This document shows positions 1,934-55,574 of a stretch of 64,000 nucleotides of DNA, one piece after another. Source of the stretch: TPA_inf: Saccharomyces (taxonomy: Eukaryota); NCBI GenBank assembly GCA_000146045.2, contig BK006937.2:64001-128000 (forward strand). The letters are read 5' to 3'. The notes below the pieces were generated by a model. The model saw only the letters and a list, made by a program, of their open reading frames with translations, searched no databases and was not told where the DNA came from. A program made the translations under genes and the position numbers. Positions within the stretch are counted from its first letter, which is position 1; every line of letters begins with the position of its first letter.

Positions 1934-4333
1934 CTACTGGAAATCCTTTGGGATCAACCCAAGCTTACTCATTCTGATTTTCACAGCGTTTCTGTGACCG
2001 TCTAGACCCTCCTTCTTGGCAACGCACATAACAGCTCTACCGATGTTTTCTAAACCTTCAGGGGTAATGTTTTGGGCAGTGATAAACTTTTGGAAGGTTG
2101 CAGTGTTGGCACCACTGTACTGCCTAGCGTAACCATAGGTTGGTAATGTATGGTTAGTACCACTTGAATAGTCACCGCACGATTCTGGAGTGTAAGCACC
2201 CACAAATACGGACCCTGCATTGTCAACCAATTTAACATAATCGTTAGCATTGGCGATTTGTAGAATCAAATGTTCTGGTGCATATTGGTTGGACATTTCA
2301 AGGGCTTCTTCGTAACCGTCACAAAGAACGATCGTACTGTGAGCAATACATTTACGAACAATATCCACACGTGGCAGTTGTAAAGCTTGATTGTGGACAG
2401 CATCTTGAATCTCTTGAATTTTCTTTTCGCTCAAGTTAACACCAACAAGGATAACTTGGGAGTCAATACCGTGTTCAGCTTGCGATAGCAAATCACTTGC
2501 AACAAAATCCACATCGGCATCTTCATCGGCAATAACCAAAACTTCACTTGGGCCAGCTGGCATATCAATGGAACATAGAGCTTGAGTGTCATTTTGAACA
2601 TACATTTTGGCGGCAGTCACAAATTGATTACCTGGACCCAAGATCTTATCCACTTTAGGAATAGTTTCTGTCCCGTAAGCCATAGCAGCAACGGCTTGGG
2701 CACCACCAGCTAGAACAATCTTGGAAGCGCCAACTTTTTCTGCGACATAAACAACTTCGGGTGAAACTTTACCATCAGATTTTCTTGGTGGAGATGCAAA
2801 CACAATCTCCTTACATTGGGCAACTTGTGCTGGAACACCAAGCATTAATGCAGTACTTGGTAAAATGGCAGTGCCACCAGGGATATACAAACCAACTTTT
2901 TCAATAGGACGAGGGAATCTGGAACACAAGACACCAGGTTGGGTTTCAACTTCAAGAGTCTCTGTTGGCAATTGAGCAGCATGGAATTTGCGGACGTTTT
3001 CAATTGAAAGGTCCAAAGCTTCCTTCATTTCCTCGGTTAAACCTTCAAAGTATTCTTCTGGGAATGGAGCATTAAGAACAGGATTGGATAATTTTACACC
3101 ATCAAACTTTTCTGTGTACTCCAAAAGGGCAGAGTTACCTTTGTCTCTAACATTTTCGATGATCGGATTGACTAAATGCATAATTTCAGAAGTCTTTTGG
3201 ATTGGTCTGCTCAAAGCCTTCTGCACACCAACTTTGTCGGAAGCCTTCACCACGTCCAAGTGAATTGGACCGGTCAGTTTTTCTTCTTCAGCCTTTGGTT
3301 GTCCAACAAACTTTGGCTTAGCATCACCTTTCCGTCTTGTAACCTTCAGATGCTTCATATTCAGATTATTCTCGACGTCCTTCAATGAAACATCGTTGGC
3401 CACTAATTTGGCCAGTGCAAAGTAGAACAAATCGGCAGCCTCCCAAGAAAGCTCCTTCTTACCCTTTGCCTCAGTCAGTTCTTCAGCTTCTTCCTTGATC
3501 TTGGCATCTAACAATGCAGAGTCGTTGAATAGTCTTCTAGTATAAGATTCCTCTGGAGCGTCCTGTAGCCTTTGTTTTAGTAAAGATTCTAGCCCCACCA
3601 AACCATGCTTGAATTCACCAAAGCAAGACATGGTCTCCAAGTGGCAAAATCCAACGTTTTCTTGTTCAACGATAAACTTTAAGGCATCCGAATCACAGTC
3701 AGTAGAGATTTGTAAAAGCTTTTGGCCATTGCCAGAAGTTTCACCCTTGATCCAGATTTCATTCCTAGAACGAGAATAATAAACGCCACGACCCAAATCG
3801 ATGGCCTTTGCTATAGATTTCTTCGAAGAATACACCAACCCTAGACAACGCTCATATTGGTCGACAACTAGGGTGGTATATAAACCGTCAGGACGGTCTG
3901 TACGTACTTCACCAAGCACTTCTTTGGTCAACATATCCTTGCTTAATTTCTTTATGGACACAATTTTATCTTGCGAGAATTTTTGTTTTACCATGAATTG
4001 ATTGGAGAAAACACCGTTCTCTTCCACAACAACACGCTCCTTTGGTACATTCAATTGTTCAACCAAGTGTTCGGCTGTTTTAGCATCTTGGCTAGCAATG
4101 AACAGAGAAGAAACTCCGTTGTTCAAGAAGGCAATGATTTCATCATCGCTGAATTTACCACTTGGCAAGGACAAAGCCACCAATGGAACTTCTTCCTCTT
4201 TGGAGAACTGGAGAATCTCTTCATTACTCAGGCTCGAGCCATCCAAAAGTACCTGACCAACAAGTGAAACGTATTCCTTCTTACTATTCCATGAGGCCAG
4301 ATCATCAATTAACGGTAGAATCGGCAAAACCAT
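1934..4333 (-). CDS. HIS4: Trifunctional histidine biosynthesis enzyme His4 (799 aa)
   Basis: A 799-aa ORF; N-terminus MVLPILPLIDDLASWNSKKEY and the C-terminal histidinol dehydrogenase region are recognised. ATG at 4331-4333. Confidence 0.97.
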   Translation of the reverse strand: MVLPILPLIDDLASWNSKKEYVSLVGQVLLDGSSLSNEEILQFSKEEEVPLVALSLPSGKFSDDEIIAFLNNGVSSLFIASQDAKTAEHLVEQLNVPKERVVVEENGVFSNQFMVKQKFSQDKIVSIKKLSKDMLTKEVLGEVRTDRPDGLYTTLVVDQYERCLGLVYSSKKSIAKAIDLGRGVYYSRSRNEIWIKGETSGNGQKLLQISTDCDSDALKFIVEQENVGFCHLETMSCFGEFKHGLVGLESLLKQRLQDAPEESYTRRLFNDSALLDAKIKEEAEELTEAKGKKELSWEAADLFYFALAKLVANDVSLKDVENNLNMKHLKVTRRKGDAKPKFVGQPKAEEEKLTGPIHLDVVKASDKVGVQKALSRPIQKTSEIMHLVNPIIENVRDKGNSALLEYTEKFDGVKLSNPVLNAPFPEEYFEGLTEEMKEALDLSIENVRKFHAAQLPTETLEVETQPGVLCSRFPRPIEKVGLYIPGGTAILPSTALMLGVPAQVAQCKEIVFASPPRKSDGKVSPEVVYVAEKVGASKIVLAGGAQAVAAMAYGTETIPKVDKILGPGNQFVTAAKMYVQNDTQALCSIDMPAGPSEVLVIADEDADVDFVASDLLSQAEHGIDSQVILVGVNLSEKKIQEIQDAVHNQALQLPRVDIVRKCIAHSTIVLCDGYEEALEMSNQYAPEHLILQIANANDYVKLVDNAGSVFVGAYTPESCGDYSSGTNHTLPTYGYARQYSGANTATFQKFITAQNITPEGLENIGRAVMCVAKKEGLDGHRNAVKIRMSKLGLIPKDFQ

Positions 4334-5921: not shown

Positions 5922-6149
5922 GGTATTTCAAACGCATACACAGCCAGCCACAGCTCAACGCCTTTTACCTTGTCCTTTGATGCCTGTCTCGTCCAAACGT
6001 TTTTGGTGTCTTGGCCAATTGCCCTTCTGAAAAATCTCACTGTCCGCAACTCATTAAAAGATACCCAAGCAAGCTACACGATAAAGAAAGGAGAAAGTTC
6101 ATTAAAAGAACGTACATATAGCGATACAAACGTATAGCAAAGATCTGAA

Positions 6150-7367
6150 ATGGATACGGATAAGTTAATCTCAGAGGCTGAGTCTCATTTTTCTCAAGGA
6201 AACCATGCAGAAGCTGTTGCGAAGTTGACATCCGCAGCTCAGTCGAACCCCAATGACGAGCAAATGTCAACTATTGAATCATTAATTCAAAAAATCGCAG
6301 GATACGTCATGGACAACCGTAGTGGTGGTAGTGACGCCTCGCAAGATCGTGCTGCTGGTGGTGGTTCATCTTTTATGAACACTTTAATGGCAGACTCTAA
6401 GGGTTCTTCCCAAACGCAACTAGGAAAACTAGCTTTGTTAGCCACAGTGATGACACACTCATCAAATAAAGGTTCTTCTAACAGAGGGTTTGACGTAGGG
6501 ACTGTCATGTCAATGCTAAGTGGTTCTGGCGGCGGGAGCCAAAGTATGGGTGCTTCCGGCCTGGCTGCCTTGGCTTCTCAATTCTTTAAGTCAGGTAACA
6601 ATTCCCAAGGTCAGGGACAAGGTCAAGGTCAAGGTCAAGGTCAAGGACAAGGTCAAGGTCAAGGTTCTTTTACTGCTTTGGCGTCTTTGGCTTCATCTTT
6701 CATGAATTCCAACAACAATAATCAGCAAGGTCAAAATCAAAGCTCCGGTGGTTCCTCCTTTGGAGCACTGGCTTCTATGGCAAGCTCTTTTATGCATTCC
6801 AATAATAATCAGAACTCCAACAATAGTCAACAGGGCTATAACCAATCCTATCAAAACGGTAACCAAAATAGTCAAGGTTACAATAATCAACAGTACCAAG
6901 GTGGCAACGGTGGTTACCAACAACAACAGGGACAATCTGGTGGTGCTTTTTCCTCATTGGCCTCCATGGCTCAATCTTACTTAGGTGGTGGACAAACTCA
7001 ATCCAACCAACAGCAATACAATCAACAAGGCCAAAACAACCAGCAGCAATACCAGCAACAAGGCCAAAACTATCAGCATCAACAACAGGGTCAGCAGCAG
7101 CAACAAGGCCACTCCAGTTCATTCTCAGCTTTGGCTTCCATGGCAAGTTCCTACCTGGGCAATAACTCCAATTCAAATTCGAGTTATGGGGGCCAGCAAC
7201 AGGCTAATGAGTATGGTAGACCGCAACAGAATGGTCAACAGCAATCCAATGAGTACGGAAGACCGCAATACGGCGGAAACCAGAACTCCAATGGACAGCA
7301 CGAATCCTTCAATTTTTCTGGCAACTTTTCTCAACAGAACAATAACGGCAACCAGAACCGCTACTGA
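6150..7367 (+). CDS. RNQ1: Prion protein Rnq1 (405 aa) with a Q/N/G-rich C-terminal prion domain
   Basis: A 405-aa ORF. N-terminus MDTDKLISEAESHFSQGNH. The Q/N-rich domain carries repeated SFxALASMASSFM oligopeptides. Confidence 0.92.
   Translation: MDTDKLISEAESHFSQGNHAEAVAKLTSAAQSNPNDEQMSTIESLIQKIAGYVMDNRSGGSDASQDRAAGGGSSFMNTLMADSKGSSQTQLGKLALLATVMTHSSNKGSSNRGFDVGTVMSMLSGSGGGSQSMGASGLAALASQFFKSGNNSQGQGQGQGQGQGQGQGQGQGSFTALASLASSFMNSNNNNQQGQNQSSGGSSFGALASMASSFMHSNNNQNSNNSQQGYNQSYQNGNQNSQGYNNQQYQGGNGGYQQQQGQSGGAFSSLASMAQSYLGGGQTQSNQQQYNQQGQNNQQQYQQQGQNYQHQQQGQQQQQGHSSSFSALASMASSYLGNNSNSNSSYGGQQQANEYGRPQQNGQQQSNEYGRPQYGGNQNSNGQHESFNFSGNFSQQNNNGNQNRY
6609..6665 (+). repeat. Hexanucleotide microsatellite (CAAGGT/CAGGGA)n encoding a (QG)n tract inside RNQ1
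   Basis: ggtcagggacaaggtcaaggtcaaggtcaaggtcaaggacaaggtcaaggtcaaggt read directly from the sequence. The antisense and alternate-frame track ORFs here (KVKVKV...) are artefacts of this repeat. Confidence 0.9.
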
Positions 7368-43712: not shown

Positions 43713-44020
43713 TGATATCCTTGCATGCGCAAGTTGGTAATACACTGCACAAAACACGCGTGTGCACATACACTTATGTGGTTCACCGTGCCGCTGCTGT
43801 GTTTATCTGTTGCTCGACATGTGCTGCTAATGATTATGTTGGAATAGACAAACAATTTAAAGTAATTTCTTCTTTTTTTATAGTGAGAAATCTCAAAAGA
43901 AAAAAAAAAAAATAAAAAAAACTAAAGAGCTGCCGGGTGAGCAACGACTAAAAGAAGAAACCATTTAGGGCTTCATCAGCAACTGTAGGAGGAGAAAGCA
44001 GGTATATAACTAGCCGCAAT

Positions 44021-44791
44021 ATGTTTGTGGTGGATTGGAGCGTGCAGCTATGCATGGGAGTGATTTCACCTCTCTTCCGTGCCCTCGTGCAACTGCCTTT
44101 ATCAATTTTCGTATGGAATGGGTTTCAGCTTGTGGCATTGCCTATCAACATCCCATTGAGGTTGTTCCTGGGGACGTCGCTGAGCCGTTTAGTTGCACAA
44201 ACAAGCACATTAGACTTCTATGTGGTTTTGACGTTGTTTCAATATTTTGCTGTGCTTTGTGCTTTTGGCAGCATCATAGGACTCATCTTTGGATTTATAT
44301 TGGGTGTGTTCCACTCAATCTGCGGGGTACCCAGTGTATACATAAGTCTAGAATGGAAACGGTGGTTTGCTCCGATACGTACGGTCCTTGAACGTGCTTC
44401 CACTAGTATTGTCAACATTATGCGAGGACAAACTATTGCGCCAATACCCATGCCTAAGCCCAATCCCACGCATATATCAAAGCCTAACATGAAAAAATTC
44501 CATGATGAGCCTGGAGCTGATGATATGACTATAACGCATGATGTGAACTGCTACATCACCCCTTGCCAAACGCCTACTAACGAAAAAATTCAGCATTATA
44601 ATAATGATTCATTCAACACGACCACCACAGACGATGAACCCACTGATATTTGGGATAGGTCTGACACTTACCAAAACTCATTCGTCACCAATGAAACTTT
44701 GATGTCTCTTTCTAATAGAGCTAAGCTTCGAAGAAATGCCAGTGATGCGGACATCGTTAATATAAAGATTTTACGAAGGAATTCTAGGTGA
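44021..44791 (+). CDS. LDB16: Lipid-droplet biogenesis membrane protein Ldb16 (256 aa)
   Basis: A 256-aa ORF with ATG at 44021, N-terminal transmembrane segments and an S/T/N-rich C-terminus. Confidence 0.78.
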
Positions 44792-44959
44792 TATTGCAAT
44801 TACTTCTTCTCATGCACTAACAAGTGAATGATAGAAATATGTTGAGTTCCTAACTGCCTGATTTTAAATAAGTTTCATATTATAATCTTTTAGCATATAT
44901 ATATATATATTGATCCTCTCTCTTCTTTATTTTCTGCCAGTAACCCATGTGTGAAGAAG

Positions 44960-44970
44960 AAAACATAAAT
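44960..44970 (-). promoter_or_regulatory. Exact ARS consensus match (ATTTATGTTTT on the minus strand) in the LDB16-PGS1 intergenic region; candidate ARS307 core
   Basis: aaaacataaat on plus equals WTTTAYRTTTW on minus, an 11/11 match. ARS307 is known to lie in this interval (from memory). Confidence 0.35.
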
Positions 44971-45104
44971 AAAAAAGCAGTAGCACATGGACACATTCAC
45001 GCCCGAACACTCCTAAAAAGCAGCCCACACAAGAAAGTAGATATAATGTAGGACACCCAGCTTGTCCATAATTGCTAATAGCATACTCAGGATAACATAT
45101 ATTA

Positions 45105-46670
45105 ATGACGACTCGTTTGCTCCAACTCACTCGTCCTCATTACAGATTATTATCCCTACCTCTCCAGAAACCCTTCAATATAAAAAGGCAGATGTCCGCT
45201 GCGAACCCTTCTCCATTTGGCAATTATTTGAACACGATCACTAAGTCCCTACAACAGAATTTACAAACATGCTTTCATTTCCAAGCAAAAGAAATCGATA
45301 TAATCGAATCTCCATCTCAGTTTTACGATCTCTTGAAGACAAAAATACTTAATTCACAAAATAGAATATTCATTGCGTCTCTGTATTTAGGCAAAAGCGA
45401 GACTGAGTTGGTGGACTGCATATCCCAGGCATTGACCAAGAACCCCAAGTTGAAAGTTTCTTTTCTACTTGATGGCCTTCGAGGAACAAGAGAATTGCCT
45501 TCCGCCTGTTCCGCCACTTTATTATCGTCTTTAGTAGCCAAATATGGGTCAGAGAGAGTGGATTGCCGATTGTACAAGACGCCTGCTTATCATGGTTGGA
45601 AAAAAGTCTTGGTTCCCAAGAGATTTAATGAAGGTTTAGGCTTACAACATATGAAAATATATGGGTTTGATAACGAGGTCATTCTTTCGGGAGCCAACCT
45701 TTCGAACGACTATTTCACCAACAGACAAGATAGATACTATCTCTTTAAATCTCGAAACTTCTCCAACTATTATTTTAAATTACATCAACTCATAAGTTCC
45801 TTCAGTTATCAGATTATAAAGCCAATGGTGGATGGTAGCATCAACATCATTTGGCCAGATTCGAATCCTACTGTTGAACCGACGAAAAATAAAAGGCTGT
45901 TTTTAAGGGAAGCATCTCAATTACTAGATGGCTTTTTAAAGAGTTCTAAACAAAGCCTCCCGATTACTGCCGTGGGTCAATTCTCCACATTAGTTTACCC
46001 AATTTCTCAATTCACTCCACTTTTTCCCAAATATAATGACAAATCGACCGAAAAAAGAACAATATTGTCATTGCTTTCCACTATAACAAGCAATGCCATT
46101 TCTTGGACGTTCACTGCAGGATACTTCAATATTTTGCCAGACATCAAAGCAAAACTGCTGGCAACGCCGGTTGCTGAGGCAAATGTAATAACAGCTTCCC
46201 CCTTTGCAAACGGCTTTTACCAATCAAAGGGCGTCTCATCAAATTTACCTGGTGCTTACTTGTACCTGTCAAAAAAATTTCTACAAGATGTATGTAGGTA
46301 CAGACAAGATCATGCTATTACATTAAGAGAATGGCAAAGAGGCGTAGTAAATAAGCCGAATGGTTGGTCATATCACGCAAAAGGTATTTGGCTTTCCGCT
46401 CGTGATAAAAATGATGCTAACAATTGGAAACCCTTTATCACGGTTATAGGATCTTCAAACTATACGAGAAGGGCGTATTCATTAGATTTGGAATCGAATG
46501 CTCTCATTATTACAAGAGATGAAGAGCTAAGAAAAAAAATGAAAGCAGAGTTAGATAATTTATTACAATATACAAAACCTGTAACTCTAGAAGACTTTCA
46601 ATCAGACCCAGAAAGACATGTTGGCACTGGTGTAAAGATAGCTACCTCCATTTTGGGTAAAAAACTTTAG
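45105..46670 (+). CDS. PGS1: Phosphatidylglycerolphosphate synthase Pgs1 (PLD superfamily with two HKD motifs, 521 aa)
   Basis: A 521-aa ORF; HKD motifs include HMKIYGFDNEVILSGANLSNDYF and HAKGIWLS; N-terminal mitochondrial targeting sequence. Confidence 0.92.
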   Translation: MTTRLLQLTRPHYRLLSLPLQKPFNIKRQMSAANPSPFGNYLNTITKSLQQNLQTCFHFQAKEIDIIESPSQFYDLLKTKILNSQNRIFIASLYLGKSETELVDCISQALTKNPKLKVSFLLDGLRGTRELPSACSATLLSSLVAKYGSERVDCRLYKTPAYHGWKKVLVPKRFNEGLGLQHMKIYGFDNEVILSGANLSNDYFTNRQDRYYLFKSRNFSNYYFKLHQLISSFSYQIIKPMVDGSINIIWPDSNPTVEPTKNKRLFLREASQLLDGFLKSSKQSLPITAVGQFSTLVYPISQFTPLFPKYNDKSTEKRTILSLLSTITSNAISWTFTAGYFNILPDIKAKLLATPVAEANVITASPFANGFYQSKGVSSNLPGAYLYLSKKFLQDVCRYRQDHAITLREWQRGVVNKPNGWSYHAKGIWLSARDKNDANNWKPFITVIGSSNYTRRAYSLDLESNALIITRDEELRKKMKAELDNLLQYTKPVTLEDFQSDPERHVGTGVKIATSILGKKL

Positions 46671-46807
46671 ATTCTATTCTATCATAGTATGTCGCCTGTA
46701 AATATGGAAAAATAAAAGAAAAAATAGTAATAATAAATGCATTATCTAAAACTCCTTAAATTTGCAAACATCGCAAAGCCATTAAGGTAGAGAATGAGCT
46801 GACCTTG

Positions 46808-47557
46808 TTATAGTTTTCCTTTTGGCAACCGTGGTTTCCGTCCTACGTAAACATACTGAACTTGACAAAGTATGACCAATAAGGTGACAAATTGTATCAA
46901 TTTTACCCAAAAGGGCGTTGAATTAAATGGTATCTCGTAAAACAATGCATTGGTCGGTATTACCAGTCTACCTAATAAATCGATAGATTCAGCCAAAAAT
47001 GATATCAATGCAAACTTTGATGATAAACCTACTGTTGAGCATCCCATCCAGTTTATACTCATTTGAGGCACATACTTGAAACATTTAAGCAGATTTGCCA
47101 TTACCCACAAATAATTTATGTGTTCCAAATAGAAAACGCCAAATTTACCTGAATTTTTCAACGGTAAATTAGAGATGGAACAGCCATATGTAAATATGCC
47201 TAATACAAGGAACACACTTATAATTATTATGGAAGTAATGGAAATGCCCTGATAAATATGTTTAGTTGACCTATAATAGTATAACTGCCTTAAAACCATC
47301 ATGCAGCAACAGGAAACGCAAAAATCTTTTAGAATGAGGAAACTGGATATAGGTATACTACGGGCATCATTCAACGGATAAAAAAGTGGGAATCTTTGAG
47401 ACAGTTGTTCCCTCACCAGAGATGAATAACAATAATGCAACGCGCAATACAAGTACAGACCATTACCAACAAAATCTAGCAGAAATAAATCATATGAAAG
47501 CCCGTAAATAGATCGATGAAGTTTATTATAGCGCTTTTGACATAGAATGGCGATGAT
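46808..47557 (-). CDS. YCL002C exon 2 (multi-pass membrane protein of unknown function)
   Basis: The frame stays open upstream of the track's TTG start, back to a 3' splice site (AG at plus 47558-47559, minus-strand ...cttacatag|ATCATCGCC). It contains many hydrophobic segments. Confidence 0.55.
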   Translation of the reverse strand: MIAILCQKRYNKLHRSIYGLSYDLFLLDFVGNGLYLYCALHYCYSSLVREQLSQRFPLFYPLNDARSIPISSFLILKDFCVSCCCMMVLRQLYYYRSTKHIYQGISITSIIIISVFLVLGIFTYGCSISNLPLKNSGKFGVFYLEHINYLWVMANLLKCFKYVPQMSINWMGCSTVGLSSKFALISFLAESIDLLGRLVIPTNALFYEIPFNSTPFWVKLIQFVTLLVILCQVQYVYVGRKPRLPKGKL

Positions 47558-47633
47558 CTATGTAAGAAATGGAAGTTTTCTCCCTTAGTTAGTCAAACCT
47601 TTCATGTATACTTTCTCCTTCAATTATGCATAC

Positions 47634-47675
47634 TGATAAAAAACCTGCCAAGCCCTGCAGAACAATAACAAGCAT
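47634..47675 (-). CDS. YCL002C exon 1 (42 nt, MLVIVLQGLAGFLS); intron 47558-47633 (76 nt) with 5' splice site GUAUGC and branchpoint GACUAAC
   Basis: ATG at plus 47673-47675. The exon ends on a codon boundary directly before GTATGC. The GACTAAC box lies ~31 nt from the 3' AG. Exons 1 plus 2 give 263 aa. Confidence 0.5.
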
Positions 47676-47915
47676 GTGAATGATTCAATATAATTGCTTC
47701 GCAGGGCTCCTCAACCTCTCCTCTGGAAAACCTTACCTCAATGAGGTTAAAAATTGTGGGTTTTTCGTTCGCAGAGGAAAAAAAAACTTGTCAAAACACG
47801 CCTCTGCAGTAGAACACGAATTATACATAAGAAAAATAACGATACAAGAAAGGCGATTTCGATTTGGGACTAAGTGTTACACGAAAGGCATAGAGTATCA
47901 AAAAAAGGAAGCAAG

Positions 47916-48482
47916 ATGGATTACGATAGCTCTGATACAATGAACGGTGGTTCAAGTAACCCCTTAATCACTAAGATGAATACAATGAAATTATTATATC
48001 AACACTATTTGGATAAAGTCACTCCTCACGCTAAGGAGAGGTGGGCTGTATTGGGTGGTTTGTTATGTTTGTTTATGGTTCGTATTACAATGGCCGAAGG
48101 CTGGTATGTGATTTGTTATGGTCTAGGTCTATTTTTATTGAATCAATTTTTAGCCTTTTTGACCCCAAAATTCGATATGTCCTTACAGCAAGATGAAGAA
48201 AACAACGAATTGGAAGCTGGAGAAAAATCAGAAGAATTCCGTCCATTCATCAGAAGATTACCAGAGTTCAAATTCTGGTATAACAGCATTAGAGCCACTG
48301 TCATTTCCCTCTTGTTGTCGCTATTTTCAATCTTCGATATTCCAGTATTTTGGCCCATCTTATTGATGTATTTCATATTATTGTTTTTTTTAACTATGAG
48401 AAGGCAGATTCAACATATGATAAAATATAGATATATACCCTTAGATATCGGTAAGAAGAAATATTCTCATTCTTCTAACTGA
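47916..48482 (+). CDS. RER1: Golgi-ER retrieval receptor Rer1 (4 transmembrane segments, 188 aa)
   Basis: The first ATG at 47916 gives MDYDSSDTMNGGSSNPLITKMNTMKLLYQHYLDKVTPHAKERWAVLGG..., a conserved Rer1-family sequence. Confidence 0.92.
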   Translation: MDYDSSDTMNGGSSNPLITKMNTMKLLYQHYLDKVTPHAKERWAVLGGLLCLFMVRITMAEGWYVICYGLGLFLLNQFLAFLTPKFDMSLQQDEENNELEAGEKSEEFRPFIRRLPEFKFWYNSIRATVISLLLSLFSIFDIPVFWPILLMYFILLFFLTMRRQIQHMIKYRYIPLDIGKKKYSHSSN

Positions 48483-49079
48483 TATACCCTGACTCCACAT
48501 ACCTATTCAACGAACACATTCGTATCTTAATTATATGTAAACAAAATTATATGATAGTTACAGAATAATTGTGATTATTTTCTCCTTCTACTCATCTTCT
48601 CTTATATTGGAAGAATACATGAAGTTATTGATTAAGCAAAATTGAAGGGAAGAGGCTCATTTTCTTCCATTTATAAATGGAGAGCTTGAGATGCCTCCAA
48701 TTGATAAATTTTTGTAAAGACTTTCAAGAAACATGTCTAAAAAGAATTGACAGCTTCGAACCTTTCTGCATAATTACTAATACCAAATTAGTGAGAAATG
48801 GGGTATGTCGAGGAATAAAGGATGCAAAAGAGAGAGTAATGTCATGCAAGTTGTGAGTTTGAAATGTTCACACGTTTATAATGTCCATACTCCGTGGCGT
48901 GCATGTGTTTTAGTGTATTAGTTTTCCAAGTTATTAAAGAACTTAGTAAATTTATCATCGAACGCATTTTGATTAAGTGGCACAATAGACTTCAATGGAA
49001 AATGAAAATCATATCTGTAGCAAAAACGACAGCGAAGATAACGGTTACACAATTATCACGTTGATTCGTCAACTTAAAG

Positions 49080-50024
49080 ATGACCTTTTTACAATTTATC
49101 AATAATAATAGACAAGAAGGACAAGGTTATATTTCAGAAAAATTATTCAAAACTAAGAAGAATGAGATGATAAGAAAAACAGTTACCAATTTAGTAGCTG
49201 TAAGATTAAAAAACTTATCCCACGAATTTGATGTAATAGAGAATTATCTGCGCTATATAGCTAGCACCAGTGAACATCTATTTACTGCTATTAAGCGCCA
49301 CTTTAACAAATGTGCCAGAAAACTTTTGAAAGAAGCAATCGACTCCAAATCAAACTCAGAAACTGCTACGGTGGTTCTGCAAGAAGGATTTTCTGGCATT
49401 TGCTTATTGAAAGCGTCTTCAATTATATTAAAACTAAAATTGAAGTTTCCAAAAAAGAAAGATAGAACTGATATTAGCAAATTGTGTGACAAGAAAGAAC
49501 GGATGACACAGTGGTTAGAAATTTCAATTTTGATGAACTGAGAATAATAATATTATGCTCCCCTGGATTTTATGCGAAGACACTGCTGAAAAAATTTCTG
49601 ATATATGCAGAGAAGGAGCAAATAAGCCAGTTTTAAGGAACCGAGATAAGCTGTTTTCGCCCATTGTTCTAGTTCTACAAAATATCTACAGGGAATCGAT
49701 GAGGTTGTAAGAAATCCTGAATACTCTATGATAGTGCATAACACTAAAAAGTTGAAAGAATCCCGTATCATGGACGATTTCCTTGAACATTTGAGCAAAG
49801 ACGATAACAAAGCATGGTATGGCGCGGAAGAAACCGAGAGAGCTGCAAAATTAGATGCAATAGAAACACTACTTATTACAGATAGTGTACTAAAAAGGAA
49901 CGACGTGAAAAAACGTGAAAAATACCTAGACCTAATAGAGAATAGTGGAAACAACAATGGCAAAATATTCGTACTCAGTACTTCAAAAATCACAGTGAGC
50001 AACTTGACAAACCAACAGATATAG
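49080..50024 (+). pseudogene. Dom34/Pelota paralog relic spanning three reading frames. It is currently readable as two ORFs: 49080-49541 (153 aa) and 49770-50024 (84 aa).
   Basis: The first ORF ends at TGA 49539-49541. The Pelota-like sequence continues in frame +2 (IILCSPGFYAKTLLKKFLIYAEKEQ at ~49550-49630). It then returns to frame 0 as ...KKLKESRIMDDFLEHLSKDDNKAWYGAEETERAAKLDAIETLLITDSVLKRNDVKKREKYLDLIENSGNNNGKIFVLST, a Pelota C-terminal eRF1-like domain. Confidence 0.6.
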
Positions 50025-50384
50025 GCTGTGTCTTAAAATATACCATCCAATACCTTGATGAACTTTTCAAAGATGACTAAAATAAGTGAAATTTCAACAT
50101 TAACTTCGAATTTTTTTCTTTTTATCTAACACTTGTCAAACAGAATATAAGGATTACTTGTCTTCTTTGCTACATATTGCTACCACTTCTATTACACAAT
50201 AGTTTCAATAGCTTGCAGCGTAGCTAAACTCTAAAATTTATCTAAATCACTCATATAAACCGAACCCTTCCCCTTCCGCTTATAGTACAGTACCTATACA
50301 TTTCATAAACATGGCATGGCGATCAGCGCCAAACAATATGGAAAATCCACAGAAAGCTATTCATTGAAAAAATAGTACAAATAA

Positions 50385-50501
50385 GTCACATGATGATATT
50401 TGATTTTATTATATTTTTAAAAAAAGTAAAAAATAAAAAGTAGTTTATTTTTAAAAAATAAAATTTAAAATATTAGTGTATTTGATTTCCGAAAGTTAAA
50501 A
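50385..50501 (+). other. CEN3: Point centromere CEN3: CDEI GTCACATG (50385-50392), CDEII 84 bp at >90% A+T (50393-50476), CDEIII TGTATTTGATTTCCGAAAGTTAAAA (50477-50501)
   Basis: All three elements are read directly. CDEIII contains the invariant CCG flanked by the TGATTT and GAAAGT half-sites. CDEII shows the A-run/T-run periodicity. Confidence 0.95.
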
Positions 50502-51684
50502 AAGAAATAGTAAGAAATATATATTTCATTGAATGGATATATGAAACGTTTACTGGTGGAAGTTTTGCTCATATATTATTATTCAATAGAAGTAATAAAG
50601 AAAAAGTTGGTAAAGCAACTTAACAGTAAAAAGGTAATGATTGAAAAAGTTTTTGAACATCTAAGCTATATGTTGATGGGTTTACAATTTTACCATTAGT
50701 ACTCATGCCTATACTTTTCTGTTCGTCCTTAATGTCCGCGATTTAGAGCAATCATTGAAAGTACTAGATACATTTTAGCCAGAGAGGACTCGTTGACGTA
50801 GAATTAAAATTCAAATGAATTTCCGCCCCATTCATATACCCCAAATAACAAACATATTAAAACTTCATAATTATTCAAAATGTGGAGTAGTATAGAAGAG
50901 CAGTACCTTCAAAATTGATTTCTTCAGTTTCCCACCCGGGATCCACTTGTCATGCGGTGAGAATCGTATATTGCGTATAATCCGTGTTTCATCACCCACA
51001 TTATAGTACAAACCTACTGGTGTAACCATTATCATATTCATGACTTGTAGTTAAAAATCTTTCACGATAAATTGAGGAAAAAATCACGTTAAATAGTTTC
51101 ATATCATTCTTTAGTTAAAGTCTGTGCATAAAAAGAGGATCGGGTGTTGTACTCGTTCTATCAAAATATTGTTATTGTTGCATTATCACACGAATTACAA
51201 TCAATTTTTTTATCTACAGGCCAGAGTACCTGAAATAATGGAATTAGATTCAAAAAGGATAGCTTAATCGGTCTTTATACTAATTATTTTACGCCCAGAA
51301 CGAAACATAACGTGCATTAAATCTCACTGTCACAACATTGTATATAATGGTAGCATCGTACTAACTATTGGCATTCATTCAATATTATACAATTATCTTA
51401 TTAATACTTTCTCAAGTAGTCTTGAAGACCAGCATGTAGGAAGGTGATGATATGCTCCGTAAATAATTGGAAATATTGAGATATAATAACGATGACAATA
51501 CTAACAAAAGTAATAGGTGAGCTCCGCCAATTGATTGTTTTGTTTTGAATATATATTGATGCTTAACAATTTAGTCGTCAAATAGCACCTGCAAAACCTA
51601 CCTCTTACAGGCTTTTTTTCAATTTACTCCCCATGTGGGAGTTCTACGTAAACCACTTAGAATGCAGTTTCTCTTCTAAATAAC

Positions 51685-51999
51685 ATGTTATATCTTCTGA
51701 AGAAATTGAAACATATTGATTCTTATGGTGAGAGCAATTTATCAATGTTTTATCTTAAGTTCTACTGCCCTTGGAAATTATGTCCTTTGCTTCCCATTTT
51801 ATATGGAAGAAACAAATCAGTACAAAATGCTTGGTCATGTCATAAGCTTCATCGATTTATTGACTTCCCAACTCCTTCGGCTAATATGAATTTTTTTTTC
51901 TTTATAAGAGTTTGCTATGGAACTGTCTCGCTGTTTATTTCAACGTTTCTAAAGAAAATATCCTTTTTTATTTATGTGAACTTCACTGTATACTTTTAG
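51685..51999 (+). CDS. Hypothetical 104-aa ORF in the pericentromeric gene-poor zone (YCR001W-like); coding status doubtful
   Basis: ATG at 51685. The protein is hydrophobic and low-complexity with no recognisable domain. Confidence 0.2.
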   Translation: MLYLLKKLKHIDSYGESNLSMFYLKFYCPWKLCPLLPILYGRNKSVQNAWSCHKLHRFIDFPTPSANMNFFFFIRVCYGTVSLFISTFLKKISFFIYVNFTVYF

Positions 52000-53379
52000 T
52001 ACCTTTCGGTGGATTTCTTCTATTTTACTCGATCACTTTTCTTGACTGTGCACTGTCGGTACAATCCTTATTGTATTAACTTGCGAAGAATATTTAGTCG
52101 TTCAGTAGGGTTCTTTTGGAAGAAATGCTAGCTTAACATGAGTGTGATCTCTTCTAGAATTAACTCTTTTGTTTATCCATGTAATCTGTTACCAACACAT
52201 AAAATGCATTGATAGACCAAATATCAAAAGCGTGCAGGCATCTCTTATCTAACAGTAAGCAAAATTTTGCCTGCGCTTTACTTCAATTTTCCATTCTTTT
52301 TCTGAGTCTTCGTCAGTGCATATTTTTTTACTGACAGCACCATTAATCAATCAGCTCACCTGCGCATTTCCAATAATCGTGCTCATGAAGATCATAAAGA
52401 AACGTCCAAACATGAAAGTGCTCCTTTAGAATTTCTAAATCCAAACGATATATGTACCCCTCGTTGATTTGTCCTAAAATGAGTATAGCTTGATTTTCGT
52501 TATATATTTTTTCATAGTATTCAGAAGAGGAGAGAGGATGTGATTTATCAATATCTGCATTAAGTAATGAACTTTGCCCTCTACTGAGGATATTCCCACT
52601 AGAAAACTATAAAAAATGGGAGAAAGTCAATCGCTGTTCAGGATTCAACATAGTTGTTGACAACGTATGATAAGAAGGCCAGTCCAGTCCTCCTAAGTTA
52701 GGTTAAGGGAGGTAGGGAAAAACTGAAGTGTAATGATAATCGAGGATGAAAGTGTGCGGCCAGAAAAATCTTTTCTTTTTATATTAATCTGTAATAAATA
52801 CAAGACCTATATATTAAAGTAAAACAACATTGAATCAGATCGCATACTGGTGTAGACGTGAAGTAGACATATGATAATCGAGCAGGGTGCTCAATTTGGT
52901 GTGGGACACGTTTGGGAAGGTTAAAAGAAGAGGTATATCCGGATTACATTTATTTTTGGCGTATTTTAATAATTTACTAAAAGCGCGAATAGCTTCCCAT
53001 TAGCAACGCTCAGGGACTCTTTCTAATGTTTATAGTAATACTTTAATAAGATGAGTACCAATTGCTTCTCTATGAGGCACAATCCCTAACCAAACTTTTA
53101 TTTAGAATTACCGGTAAACTCCGTTTTCTTCATAGATTAAATATTTGGCTAAGACAACAAAATGTTCTTTCATTTTACCAAACGAGAAGGTGATAGCTGT
53201 ACGCCAGAAAAGAAGGTAAAAACTCTCGCCAATCCAGCAATACCTGTACCTCTAGTTTTCGATCGCATTATGTCATTATGTAAAACCAAGGAGAGAAGCA
53301 AGTTACGGTGTTTTCATATAGAATAATTTGAGAATTCTTAATAACATAAGATATATAATCACCACCATTCTTATGAGAT

Positions 53380-54348
53380 TCAACGTTGAATGGCGTTGCT
53401 AGACATATGAGCTGAGGAACGACTATTCGCATTTTCTTTCAAGGCAATTAATTGTCTTGCTCTGAACCCTTCATAATGAATGTAGGAAGTTGTTTCGATT
53501 AAGTCTTGGAGATGAGTTCGAATCAAAAATTCCCTTAAATATACAAAATCACACTGGTTGATATCCTCAACATTAATAGCGCTCCAACGAGTTTTTCTTC
53601 CCCTGAAGGTTTCACCGTTTATTTCAATCTCATTCTCAGAACCAACCACTGCAAACGGAATGATAGATCTAACACTTCTGTTTAGTTCTAATTCCTCGTC
53701 AGTTAGTTCTTCCGAATCATAAGGATAAATCTTGAAATTGTATTTTTCGAATTCATTTTGAATAAGCTCCCTAAACTCCGTTCTTTCATCTAAAGTCAAT
53801 GTATCCGACTTGCCAATAACTGGTATAACATTTGCTATTTCTGTCAATCTTTTCAAGGCTTCAACGTCAAGGCGGCTCAACTCCTTTCCATTTGGTTGCA
53901 GGAAATAAAGAATTGCATGAACTCTTGTATCAGTAATAAACCTTTCACGTTGGGCTGTCAATTCTTTACGTAAGTATTGAGAATGTTGTTCCTTAATGTA
54001 CTTCACAATAGGCTCCCAAGCTTTAGAATTGTCAATAAAGTCACCAAATCCAGGTGTATCTATAACATTAATATTCAAGCGAACGCGGTCCTCCACAAGA
54101 GTATGAGTAGAAATTTTCATTTCAGTTGTTTTTGTAACAGGCAGGGCAGAAATATCATCACCAGTAGCAGAATCAATCAAATGTGAGGCAAATAACGTAT
54201 TTATTAGAGTACTTTTACCCAATCCGGATTGGCCAACAACCATTATATTAAATTGAAAACCTTTCTTCAACAGACGATGTTCGATCTGATTCGTGATGGT
54301 ATCAAAACCAACATAAGAAGCAGGCTGTACTGAGCTGAGAGGATCCAT
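53380..54348 (-). CDS. CDC10: Septin Cdc10 (322 aa)
   Basis: GTP-binding motifs GQSGLGKST and DTPG plus a septin unique element. N-terminus MDPLSSVQPASYVGFDTITNQIEHRLLKKGFQFNIMVVG. Confidence 0.95.
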   Translation of the reverse strand: MDPLSSVQPASYVGFDTITNQIEHRLLKKGFQFNIMVVGQSGLGKSTLINTLFASHLIDSATGDDISALPVTKTTEMKISTHTLVEDRVRLNINVIDTPGFGDFIDNSKAWEPIVKYIKEQHSQYLRKELTAQRERFITDTRVHAILYFLQPNGKELSRLDVEALKRLTEIANVIPVIGKSDTLTLDERTEFRELIQNEFEKYNFKIYPYDSEELTDEELELNRSVRSIIPFAVVGSENEIEINGETFRGRKTRWSAINVEDINQCDFVYLREFLIRTHLQDLIETTSYIHYEGFRARQLIALKENANSRSSAHMSSNAIQR

Positions 54349-54571
54349 TAATATATTTATAGAGTGCTTGTAGTAACCGTGGGGCTTGGCCTTGTATTTT
54401 CTTGTCTTTGCCTGAAAAAAGTTAAGTATTACTGATACATGTTTACATATATTCTATTCAGCGATTCTGATCTATTTGTGGTCTCTCGAGGAAATCTCAT
54501 CGTATCATACGATTATTTCCGCAAGCATTCAGAAAGCAAATCTTAATATAAGGCACAATGTTCCCAAATAA

Positions 54572-55171
<600 letters not shown>

Positions 55172-55574
55172 GCTCATCTTTCATCTAGTGGTTTCCTTTT
55201 TAAATAAACTTAAGCCTGTATATAGAAACTTAATTTCAAACTGTATATTTATTGTTTAAGACAGCATCAATGGTAGAATACAAGGAGCGGAAACAGAAAG
55301 AAAAGTCGAAATAGAATTTTTCGCTTTTGGCTTAACAAAATGAGGTCTTTGAAATCAAGAGTTTTGCTTGACAAAAAACAACTATATTTCAAAATATTAG
55401 GAAATGATATTATTAGTACAAGGACTTACAGAAATATACTTTTAATATAAAAAGGAAAAAATAAAATAAAAAGAGTTAATTCTTTATTAATTTTCCAACG
55501 TCCTACATTGATATATCTGCTGAGATAGAATTAATGTTAGTAAGAACTAAATATTAGACGCGAACTGTTGTTTC

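Follow-up and report, generated by a model that had tools for sequence, protein, structure and literature searches.

A probable non-functional remnant of a second DOM34 gene between RER1 and CEN3 of Saccharomyces cerevisiae

Two small ORFs of chromosome III of Saccharomyces cerevisiae, YCL001W-A and YCL001W-B, are listed in SGD and UniProt as pelota-like and have been tested genetically, so that their recognition matters little as a discovery. YCL001W-B has been taken as a paralogue of DOM34 of unknown function (PMC5074521). A preprint (bioRxiv 10.1101/2023.09.07.545205) named the locus REMYCL001W-A (chrIII 113002-113982), assigned it as the whole-genome duplication (WGD) paralogue of DOM34 and reported insertions totalling 12 bp, deletions totalling 94 bp and 9 out-of-frame indels. 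According to the same work, the allele is intact in S. paradoxus CBS432 and broken in S288c and 86 of 93 other strains, introgressed intact alleles being present in 7 of the 93 strains and in 66 of 1011 genomes. Deleting either ORF had no effect on 18S NRD, alone or together with a dom34 deletion (PMC5689013). A sense centromeric RNA, cenRNA3, covers YCL001W-B, and the 3' part of the locus is transcribed within it (PMC6442628). In the GIM large-scale screen, the ycl001w-a deletion was synthetic sick with rrp46-DAmP and nop56-DAmP (10.1101/2020.10.04.325191), which could reflect either a function or an effect on a neighbouring gene or the centromere. The locus is thus already known, catalogued as YCL001W-A/-B and described lesion by lesion.

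We analysed a stretch of 64,000 nucleotides of chromosome III (contig BK006937.2, positions 64,001 to 128,000 of the forward strand; hereafter the window). A preliminary description, made from the sequence alone, had proposed a single decayed Dom34/Pelota paralogue at 49080-50024. Dom34-like coding sequence was found to extend beyond both of these boundaries. By tblastn, three-way DNA alignment and indel mapping, the whole DOM34 paralogue remnant occupies 49002-50080 on the plus strand, from the ancestral ATG to the ancestral TAA, and measures 1079 bp, compared with 1161 bp in the intact orthologue. When the intact orthologue P0001 was used as the tblastn query, its residues 1-353 and 356-384 were covered in the window. 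The ATG (49002) and the TAA (50078-50080) have both been kept, and they align with the start and stop codons of the orthologue.

Between these two points the ancestral reading frame changes repeatedly (all segments are on the plus strand and frames are numbered relative to 49080). The start segment MKIISVAK (49002-49025) lies in frame 0 and is followed, after a 2-bp insertion, by an N-domain segment of 25 aa in frame 2 (49028-49101) and by a segment of 10 aa in frame 1 (49104-49134), which is flanked by two further 2-bp insertions. YCL001W-A (49080-49541, 153 aa, identical to UniProt YC01A_YEAST) keeps the ancestral frame only in about 49137-49494. Its codons 1-19 are out of that frame and their peptide is not derived from Dom34. 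It also contains the site of an in-frame 69-bp deletion and a compensating pair of 1-bp and 5-bp deletions, and it is terminated by an out-of-frame TGA at 49539-49541. The central-domain segment, TVVR plus 33 aa, follows a 16-bp deletion and is read in frame 2 (49495-49619). It is succeeded in frame 1 by NKPVLRNRDK (49620-49651), between two 1-bp deletions. Frame 0 is then regained at 49652-49985, which encodes the end of the central domain and most of the C-terminal eRF1_3 domain. YCL001W-B falls partly in this segment (49770-50024, 84 aa, identical to NP_076878.1; 98 aa when read from the ATG at 49728). The C-terminal tail, NHSEQLDKPTDIGCVLKYTIQYLDELFKDD (49986-50080), follows a last 1-bp deletion and is read in frame 2 up to the TAA. 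What is annotated as YCL001W-A and YCL001W-B is no more than the two longest stretches still open in frame 0.

Indels were mapped by a three-way DNA alignment of the window with two intact syntenic orthologue loci, L001 and L005. Compared with both, the remnant carries 11 indels, nine of which shift the frame. Four are insertions, totalling 12 bp (+2 at 49026, +2 at 49102, +2 at 49135 and +6 at 49666, the last one in frame). The other seven are deletions, totalling 94 bp (-69 after 49269, -1 after 49438, -5 after 49448, -16 after 49494, -1 after 49619, -1 after 49651 and -1 after 49985). The 69-bp deletion takes out 23 codons of the N domain. The ancestral frame accordingly runs 0, 2, 1, 0, 2, 0, 2, 1, 0, 2 along the remnant. 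This path is longer than the 0, +2, 0 succession first suggested, in which the return from frame 2 to frame 0 had been drawn without the intervening frame-1 stretch. The lesions had been modelled as a TGA plus one -1 and one +1 shift; the TGA is indeed present at 49539-49541, but it is not a primary nonsense lesion. Since it lies in a non-ancestral frame, it is a consequence of the 16-bp deletion. No stop codon generated by substitution was found in the indel-corrected ancestral frame, all codons of which are sense. Translation from the ancestral ATG nevertheless ends after 20 codons, at 49062, so that no full-length protein can be made.

The relationship of the pieces to Dom34 was assessed with PDB Dom34 chains and with the S. 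uvarum DOM34 orthologue (P0013) as references. That both small ORFs resemble Dom34 was borne out. The 153-aa ORF matched yeast Dom34 (PDB 2vgm/5m1j) with E=2e-20 over Dom34 residues 41-86 and 104-191, and the 98-aa ORF (49728-50024) matched residues 273-355 with E=4e-20. Translation of all three forward frames also yielded the expected Pelota-like peptide in the connecting stretch, 34 aa long and in frame 2. In Pfam searches, the only domain of the 98-aa ORF was a near-complete eRF1_3 (6.7e-19); the last ~30 residues of this domain are missing from YCL001W-B and are encoded in another frame. YCL001W-A gave no Pfam match, and in the stitched translation the N-domain match was gone, while the intact P0001 keeps all three domains. 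The ORF matches, the connecting peptide, the TGA and the centromere all lie where the preliminary description had placed them, and the resemblance to Dom34 is thus real and far beyond chance.

When searched as a protein, the stitched translation retrieved the intact paralogue P0001 (386 aa; E=2e-124), P0002 (S. uvarum SUVZ_03G0620, 390 aa) and, as a more distant match, P0013, which is the DOM34 orthologue of S. uvarum chromosome 14. After correction for indels, identity to the chromosome-3 copies was 60-69% (S. paradoxus-type P0001) and 54-62% (S. uvarum), and identity to S. uvarum DOM34 was 43-47%. In a neighbour-joining tree the corrected translation grouped with the chromosome-3 copies, on a long branch. 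Homology to the Pelota/Dom34 family is therefore significant, and the three domains of the family (Pelota_N/eRF1_1, eRF1_2 and eRF1_3) are not found in one continuous ORF.

Intact orthologues of 386 or 390 aa were found in a shared gene order consisting of a PGS1-like gene (with a PLD domain), a small minus-strand YCL002C-like gene, RER1 and the Dom34 paralogue. This order was the same in loci L001-L005 and L013-L020, and in the loci encoding P0001 a centromere consensus follows the Dom34 paralogue. In the window, RER1 (47916-48482, plus strand, 188 aa; Pfam Rer1, 1e-75) is the upstream neighbour of the remnant and provides the synteny anchor common to the intact orthologues. The sequence flanking the gene in L001 shows 86% identity to the window. 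P0001 and S. paradoxus SPAR_C00590 fall in one 90% cluster and share 96% identity. SPAR_C00590 and S. uvarum SUVZ_03G0620 occupy the same RER1-side locus as the remnant, and their start and stop codons align with those of the latter. Unlike it, they are uninterrupted ORFs of 386 and 390 aa with all three eRF1/Pelota domains and an omega of about 0.1, which indicates that they are functional copies of a second Pelota gene, one that is lost in S. cerevisiae. The proposal of a single Dom34/Pelota paralogue decayed by frameshifts is thus upheld by the alignment to intact orthologues.

The preliminary description had noted that the locus adjoins CEN3, and this proved correct. A full point-centromere consensus, comprising CDEI (GTCACATG), an AT-rich CDEII and CDEIII (TGTATTTGATTTCCGAAAGTTAAAA, which begins with TGTATTTGATTTCCGAAA), is present at 50385-50501 on the plus strand and starts 304 bp downstream of the stop codon of the remnant. 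The CDEI-CDEII-CDEIII consensus had 0 matches in 100 shuffles. In S. uvarum, the strict CDEI-N(70-95)-CDEIII pattern had no match in the loci of chromosomes 3 and 14 (L005 and L006), beside either Dom34 copy; presumably the centromeres of this species deviate from the strict pattern or lie outside the flank examined. The DNA between CEN3 and a septin gene (53380-54348), at about 50500-53400, is poor in ORFs. In 500-bp tiles it is 70-76% identical to S. paradoxus CBS432, two tiles being without any blastn match to this genome, and the flanking genes are 84-94% identical.

On the far side of the centromere, the window contains a citrate synthase gene (56946-58328, minus strand; Pfam Citrate_synt, 4e-96). 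It is 80% identical to L006:12331-13767, the partner of DOM34 on S. uvarum chromosome 14. There, DOM34 (plus strand) is followed by citrate synthase (minus strand), and in the window the remnant (plus strand) is followed by CEN3 and citrate synthase (minus strand). The comparison of this one flanking pair supports the view that the two arrangements form a paralogous block, as would be expected for paralogues of the CEN3/CEN14 ohnologue pair, which lie in blocks of paralogous gene order. It also agrees with the earlier suggestion that the locus is a relic of an ancient duplication. The literature attributes this duplication to the WGD (bioRxiv 10.1101/2023.09.07.545205; PMC5074521).

The two intact copies were also compared with homologues from other yeasts. 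The chromosome-3 paralogue (P0001, P0002) was 63-66% identical to a Naumovozyma dairenensis homologue and 57-60% identical to a Maudiozyma exigua homologue, against 62% and 54%, respectively, for DOM34 (P0013), a single homologue having been retrieved from each of these two species. Sequences from Lachancea, which predates the duplication, were closer to DOM34 (59-60%) than to the chromosome-3 paralogue (52-57%). In its sister species, the copy lost by S. cerevisiae shows no obvious degeneration or fast evolution.

With S. uvarum as the outgroup, each substitution was placed on a lineage, and the counts were broken down by codon position. On the window lineage, the counts at positions 1/2/3 were 47/34/49, a uniform distribution (p=0.23, n=130). 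A strong excess at the third position was seen on the S. paradoxus-type (L001) lineage (12/7/40) and on the S. uvarum (L005) lineage (36/21/91). A Nei-Gojobori three-taxon branch decomposition proved unreliable, dS to S. uvarum being saturated (~1.5), and was given up in favour of outgroup-polarised parsimony counts and a neutral expectation corrected for kappa. Omega on the window branch amounted to 0.46 by parsimony and to 0.67 with a kappa of 3.8 accounting for the observed transition bias; it was 0.14 on the L001 branch. The remnant is 80.0% identical to L001, compared with 76.6% for the intergenic DNA next to it and 92.2% for RER1. The purifying selection on coding sequence that would mark a member of the Pelota/Dom34 family was therefore not found.

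Calculated by part, omega on the window branch was 0.44 in each of the two ORFs, 0.46 in the untranslatable middle and 0.48-0.55 in the termini. As it is uniform inside and outside the ORFs, preservation in YCL001W-A and YCL001W-B does not exceed that in the other parts of the remnant. The window-branch omega was below 1 (p=0.04 to 5e-5 against strict neutrality), which means either that the gene was constrained for part of the branch or that a weak constraint persists, and the data do not separate the two. The uniformity across ORF and non-ORF parts favours an initial constrained period as the simplest explanation, and we infer an early loss of constraint on the S. cerevisiae branch.

We considered the possibility that some activity persists in the remnant. 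Transcribed within sense cenRNA3, the YCL001W-B stretch, or the small eRF1_3-domain peptide that it could encode, might aid CEN3 function or RNA surveillance, and the synthetic sickness of the ycl001w-a deletion with the two hypomorphs, of exosome and snoRNP, might represent a residual activity. As a separate point, S. paradoxus and S. uvarum may use their intact second Pelota gene, which purifying selection has maintained, for a specialised form of ribosome rescue with which S. cerevisiae has dispensed. We regard this set of proposals as speculative and unlikely to hold.

It is also conceivable, at a quite low probability, that one or both fragments have been kept as functional small proteins. 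YCL001W-B could for instance serve as an isolated eRF1_3/Pelota C-terminal domain with Hbs1 or the ribosome as its binding partner, and YCL001W-A could be a factor of RNA metabolism. The near-full eRF1_3 match of the 98-aa ORF, the occurrence of the ORFs in most strains, an omega below 1 on the cerevisiae branch and the reported synthetic sickness of the ycl001w-a deletion with rrp46-DAmP and nop56-DAmP would all be in keeping with this idea. Yet the ORFs evolve with the same omega (0.44) as the connecting segment (0.46) and the out-of-frame termini (0.48-0.55), YCL001W-A starts with 19 codons that are out of the ancestral frame and matches no Pfam family, and YCL001W-B has lost the last ~30 residues of its domain. 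Furthermore, some strains carry additional frameshifted or truncated alleles, and the deletions caused no 18S NRD phenotype and did not enhance that of the dom34 deletion (PMC5689013). As to the genetic interactions, removal of DNA that lies 300-1300 bp from CEN3 and beside RER1 can cause neighbour effects. A residual function of the fragments is thus unlikely, and a non-functional remnant remains the preferred reading.

If a full-length Pelota-like protein were produced, this would need programmed ribosomal frameshifting and/or stop-codon read-through. The conserved ancestral start and stop and the absence of any nonsense codon from the ancestral frame are compatible with such a mechanism, for which there is precedent in the yeast +1 frameshift genes EST3, ABP140 and OAZ1. 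However, nine shifts of both signs would be required, some of them across the 16-bp and 5-bp deletions, the 23 N-domain codons would still be lacking, and the substitution pattern is relaxed. Genes of this kind have one shift site, which is conserved in orthologues and carries a slippery or hungry-codon heptamer; no such site was found here. Eight frameshift-type heptamers (including CTTAGGC, CTTAGTT, GCGAGTT and TTTAAAC) were searched for in the remnant; none was at a shift site and five were absent. AAAAAAC is present at 49208 and 49908, and AAAAAAG at 49451, immediately 3' of the 5-bp deletion that follows 49448, is the only one of the searched heptamers that comes close to a shift boundary. 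None of the shift sites is conserved, since the ORFs of the orthologues run without interruption. With nine mixed shifts, no conserved heptamer site and orthologues that contain no shift, programmed frameshifting was excluded, its residual probability being negligible.

The broken allele is widespread, its ORFs being found in hundreds of S. cerevisiae assemblies. The exact 153-aa sequence of UniProt YC01A_YEAST ('Putative pelota-like protein YCL001W-A') occurs on 369 contigs (644 index blocks) and the exact 84-aa YCL001W-B sequence on 131 contigs. The lesions were reproduced in independent genomes, at loci L007-L012 from six separate assemblies, and some strains have further frameshifted or truncated variants (P0027, 140 aa; P0030, 132 aa; P0051, 68 aa). 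An intact ORF in the real genome, which would have pointed to a sequencing error, was not found for the S288c-type allele. As regards other strains and species, the ORF is intact in S. paradoxus and S. uvarum, but the intact alleles of S. cerevisiae are introgressed only. These alleles (P0052, 386 aa), which are annotated in some S. cerevisiae assemblies, are identical to that of S. paradoxus CBS432 (L017). Two of the loci concerned, L015 and L016, were compared with window 43000-56200. L016 matches the window at 100% identity as far as about position 3500 of the locus and CBS432 at 100% identity thereafter, and L015 is a three-part mosaic with two switches between window-type and CBS432-type sequence. 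Complete identity to CBS432 and such sharp switches indicate that the intact alleles are introgressions and not a native allele. In both loci, the S. paradoxus-type block runs from upstream of the intact gene (6001-7161) to the end of the 13-kb locus. Since it extends past the CEN3 position downstream of the gene, these strains appear to carry an S. paradoxus centromere 3. Sequencing or assembly errors in a genome that is really intact, to which the intact alleles annotated in some S. cerevisiae assemblies might have pointed, are thus refuted with near certainty by the identical 153-aa ORF in many independent assemblies, by the introgressed origin of the intact alleles (L015 and L016) and by the preprint's finding that S288c and 86 of 93 further strains carry the broken allele (bioRxiv 10.1101/2023.09.07.545205).

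Some public S. cerevisiae gene models at this locus look like gene-prediction artefacts with invented introns. P0016 ('protein retrieval receptor', 293 aa, 47916-49541) joins RER1 residues 1 to ~150 to YCL001W-A, and P0028 (260 aa, 49080-50024) splices YCL001W-A to YCL001W-B. A published statement on the region 49080-49541 of the window (PMC4524479) is probably also an artefact, which came about by projecting the S. cerevisiae ORF, with its frame shifts, onto the intact gene of S. paradoxus.

Taken together, homology, synteny, the indel map, the relaxed substitution pattern and the occurrence in many assemblies make it highly probable that the locus is a non-functional DOM34 ohnologue remnant at its ancestral position. 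It would represent the dead second copy of the ribosome-rescue gene DOM34/Pelota, a WGD ohnologue still lying between RER1 and CEN3, of which the counterparts in S. paradoxus (SPAR_C00590) and S. uvarum (SUVZ_03G0620) are intact and under purifying selection. Constraint would have been lost in the S. cerevisiae lineage after its split from S. paradoxus, and 11 indels and evenly spread substitutions would then have accumulated. The absence of function in the fragments and the timing of the loss are themselves deduced. The preliminary description was right in essence; it understated the extent of the remnant and the damage to it, and took the TGA for a primary lesion.

The practical value of this reading is in annotation. 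Two 'uncharacterized ORFs' are to be understood as fragments of a single dead gene, with some of the YCL001W-A sequence being out-of-frame noise, and automated pipelines build spurious chimeras at the locus (RER1 with YCL001W-A, and YCL001W-A with YCL001W-B). The biological question that it raises is what role the intact second Pelota paralogue plays in S. paradoxus and S. uvarum, and why it is dispensable in S. cerevisiae.

Our map agrees with that of the preprint on REMYCL001W-A in the 12 bp inserted, the 94 bp deleted, the nine out-of-frame indels and the start (113002, which is window 49002). In the preprint the end lies at chrIII 113982 (window 49982), with 8 deletions and 3 in-frame stops, whereas in our map homology extends further, in frame 2, as far as the TAA (50078-50080), with 7 deletions and no stop in the corrected frame. 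These discrepancies are a matter of alignment and bookkeeping only. With respect to DOM34 itself (YNL001W; Pelota, PDB 2vgm), the remnant is homologous over all three domains and has the same centromere-adjacent place in the duplicated block. DOM34 is an intact gene of 386 aa, whereas the remnant has no continuous ORF, lacks 23 N-domain codons and shows no codon-position bias. The remnant belongs to the same class as other remnants of WGD paralogues (REMYDR439C-A, REMYKL162C-A/REMPIR6 and REMYCR099C/REMVTH4), each a former gene at its ancestral site. Like them, it has multiple frameshifts, pieces annotated as small ORFs and an intact copy in S. paradoxus, with, in some cases, recovery by introgression. 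It differs in that it derives from another gene family, lies directly beside a centromere and has its 3' part under a centromeric non-coding RNA.
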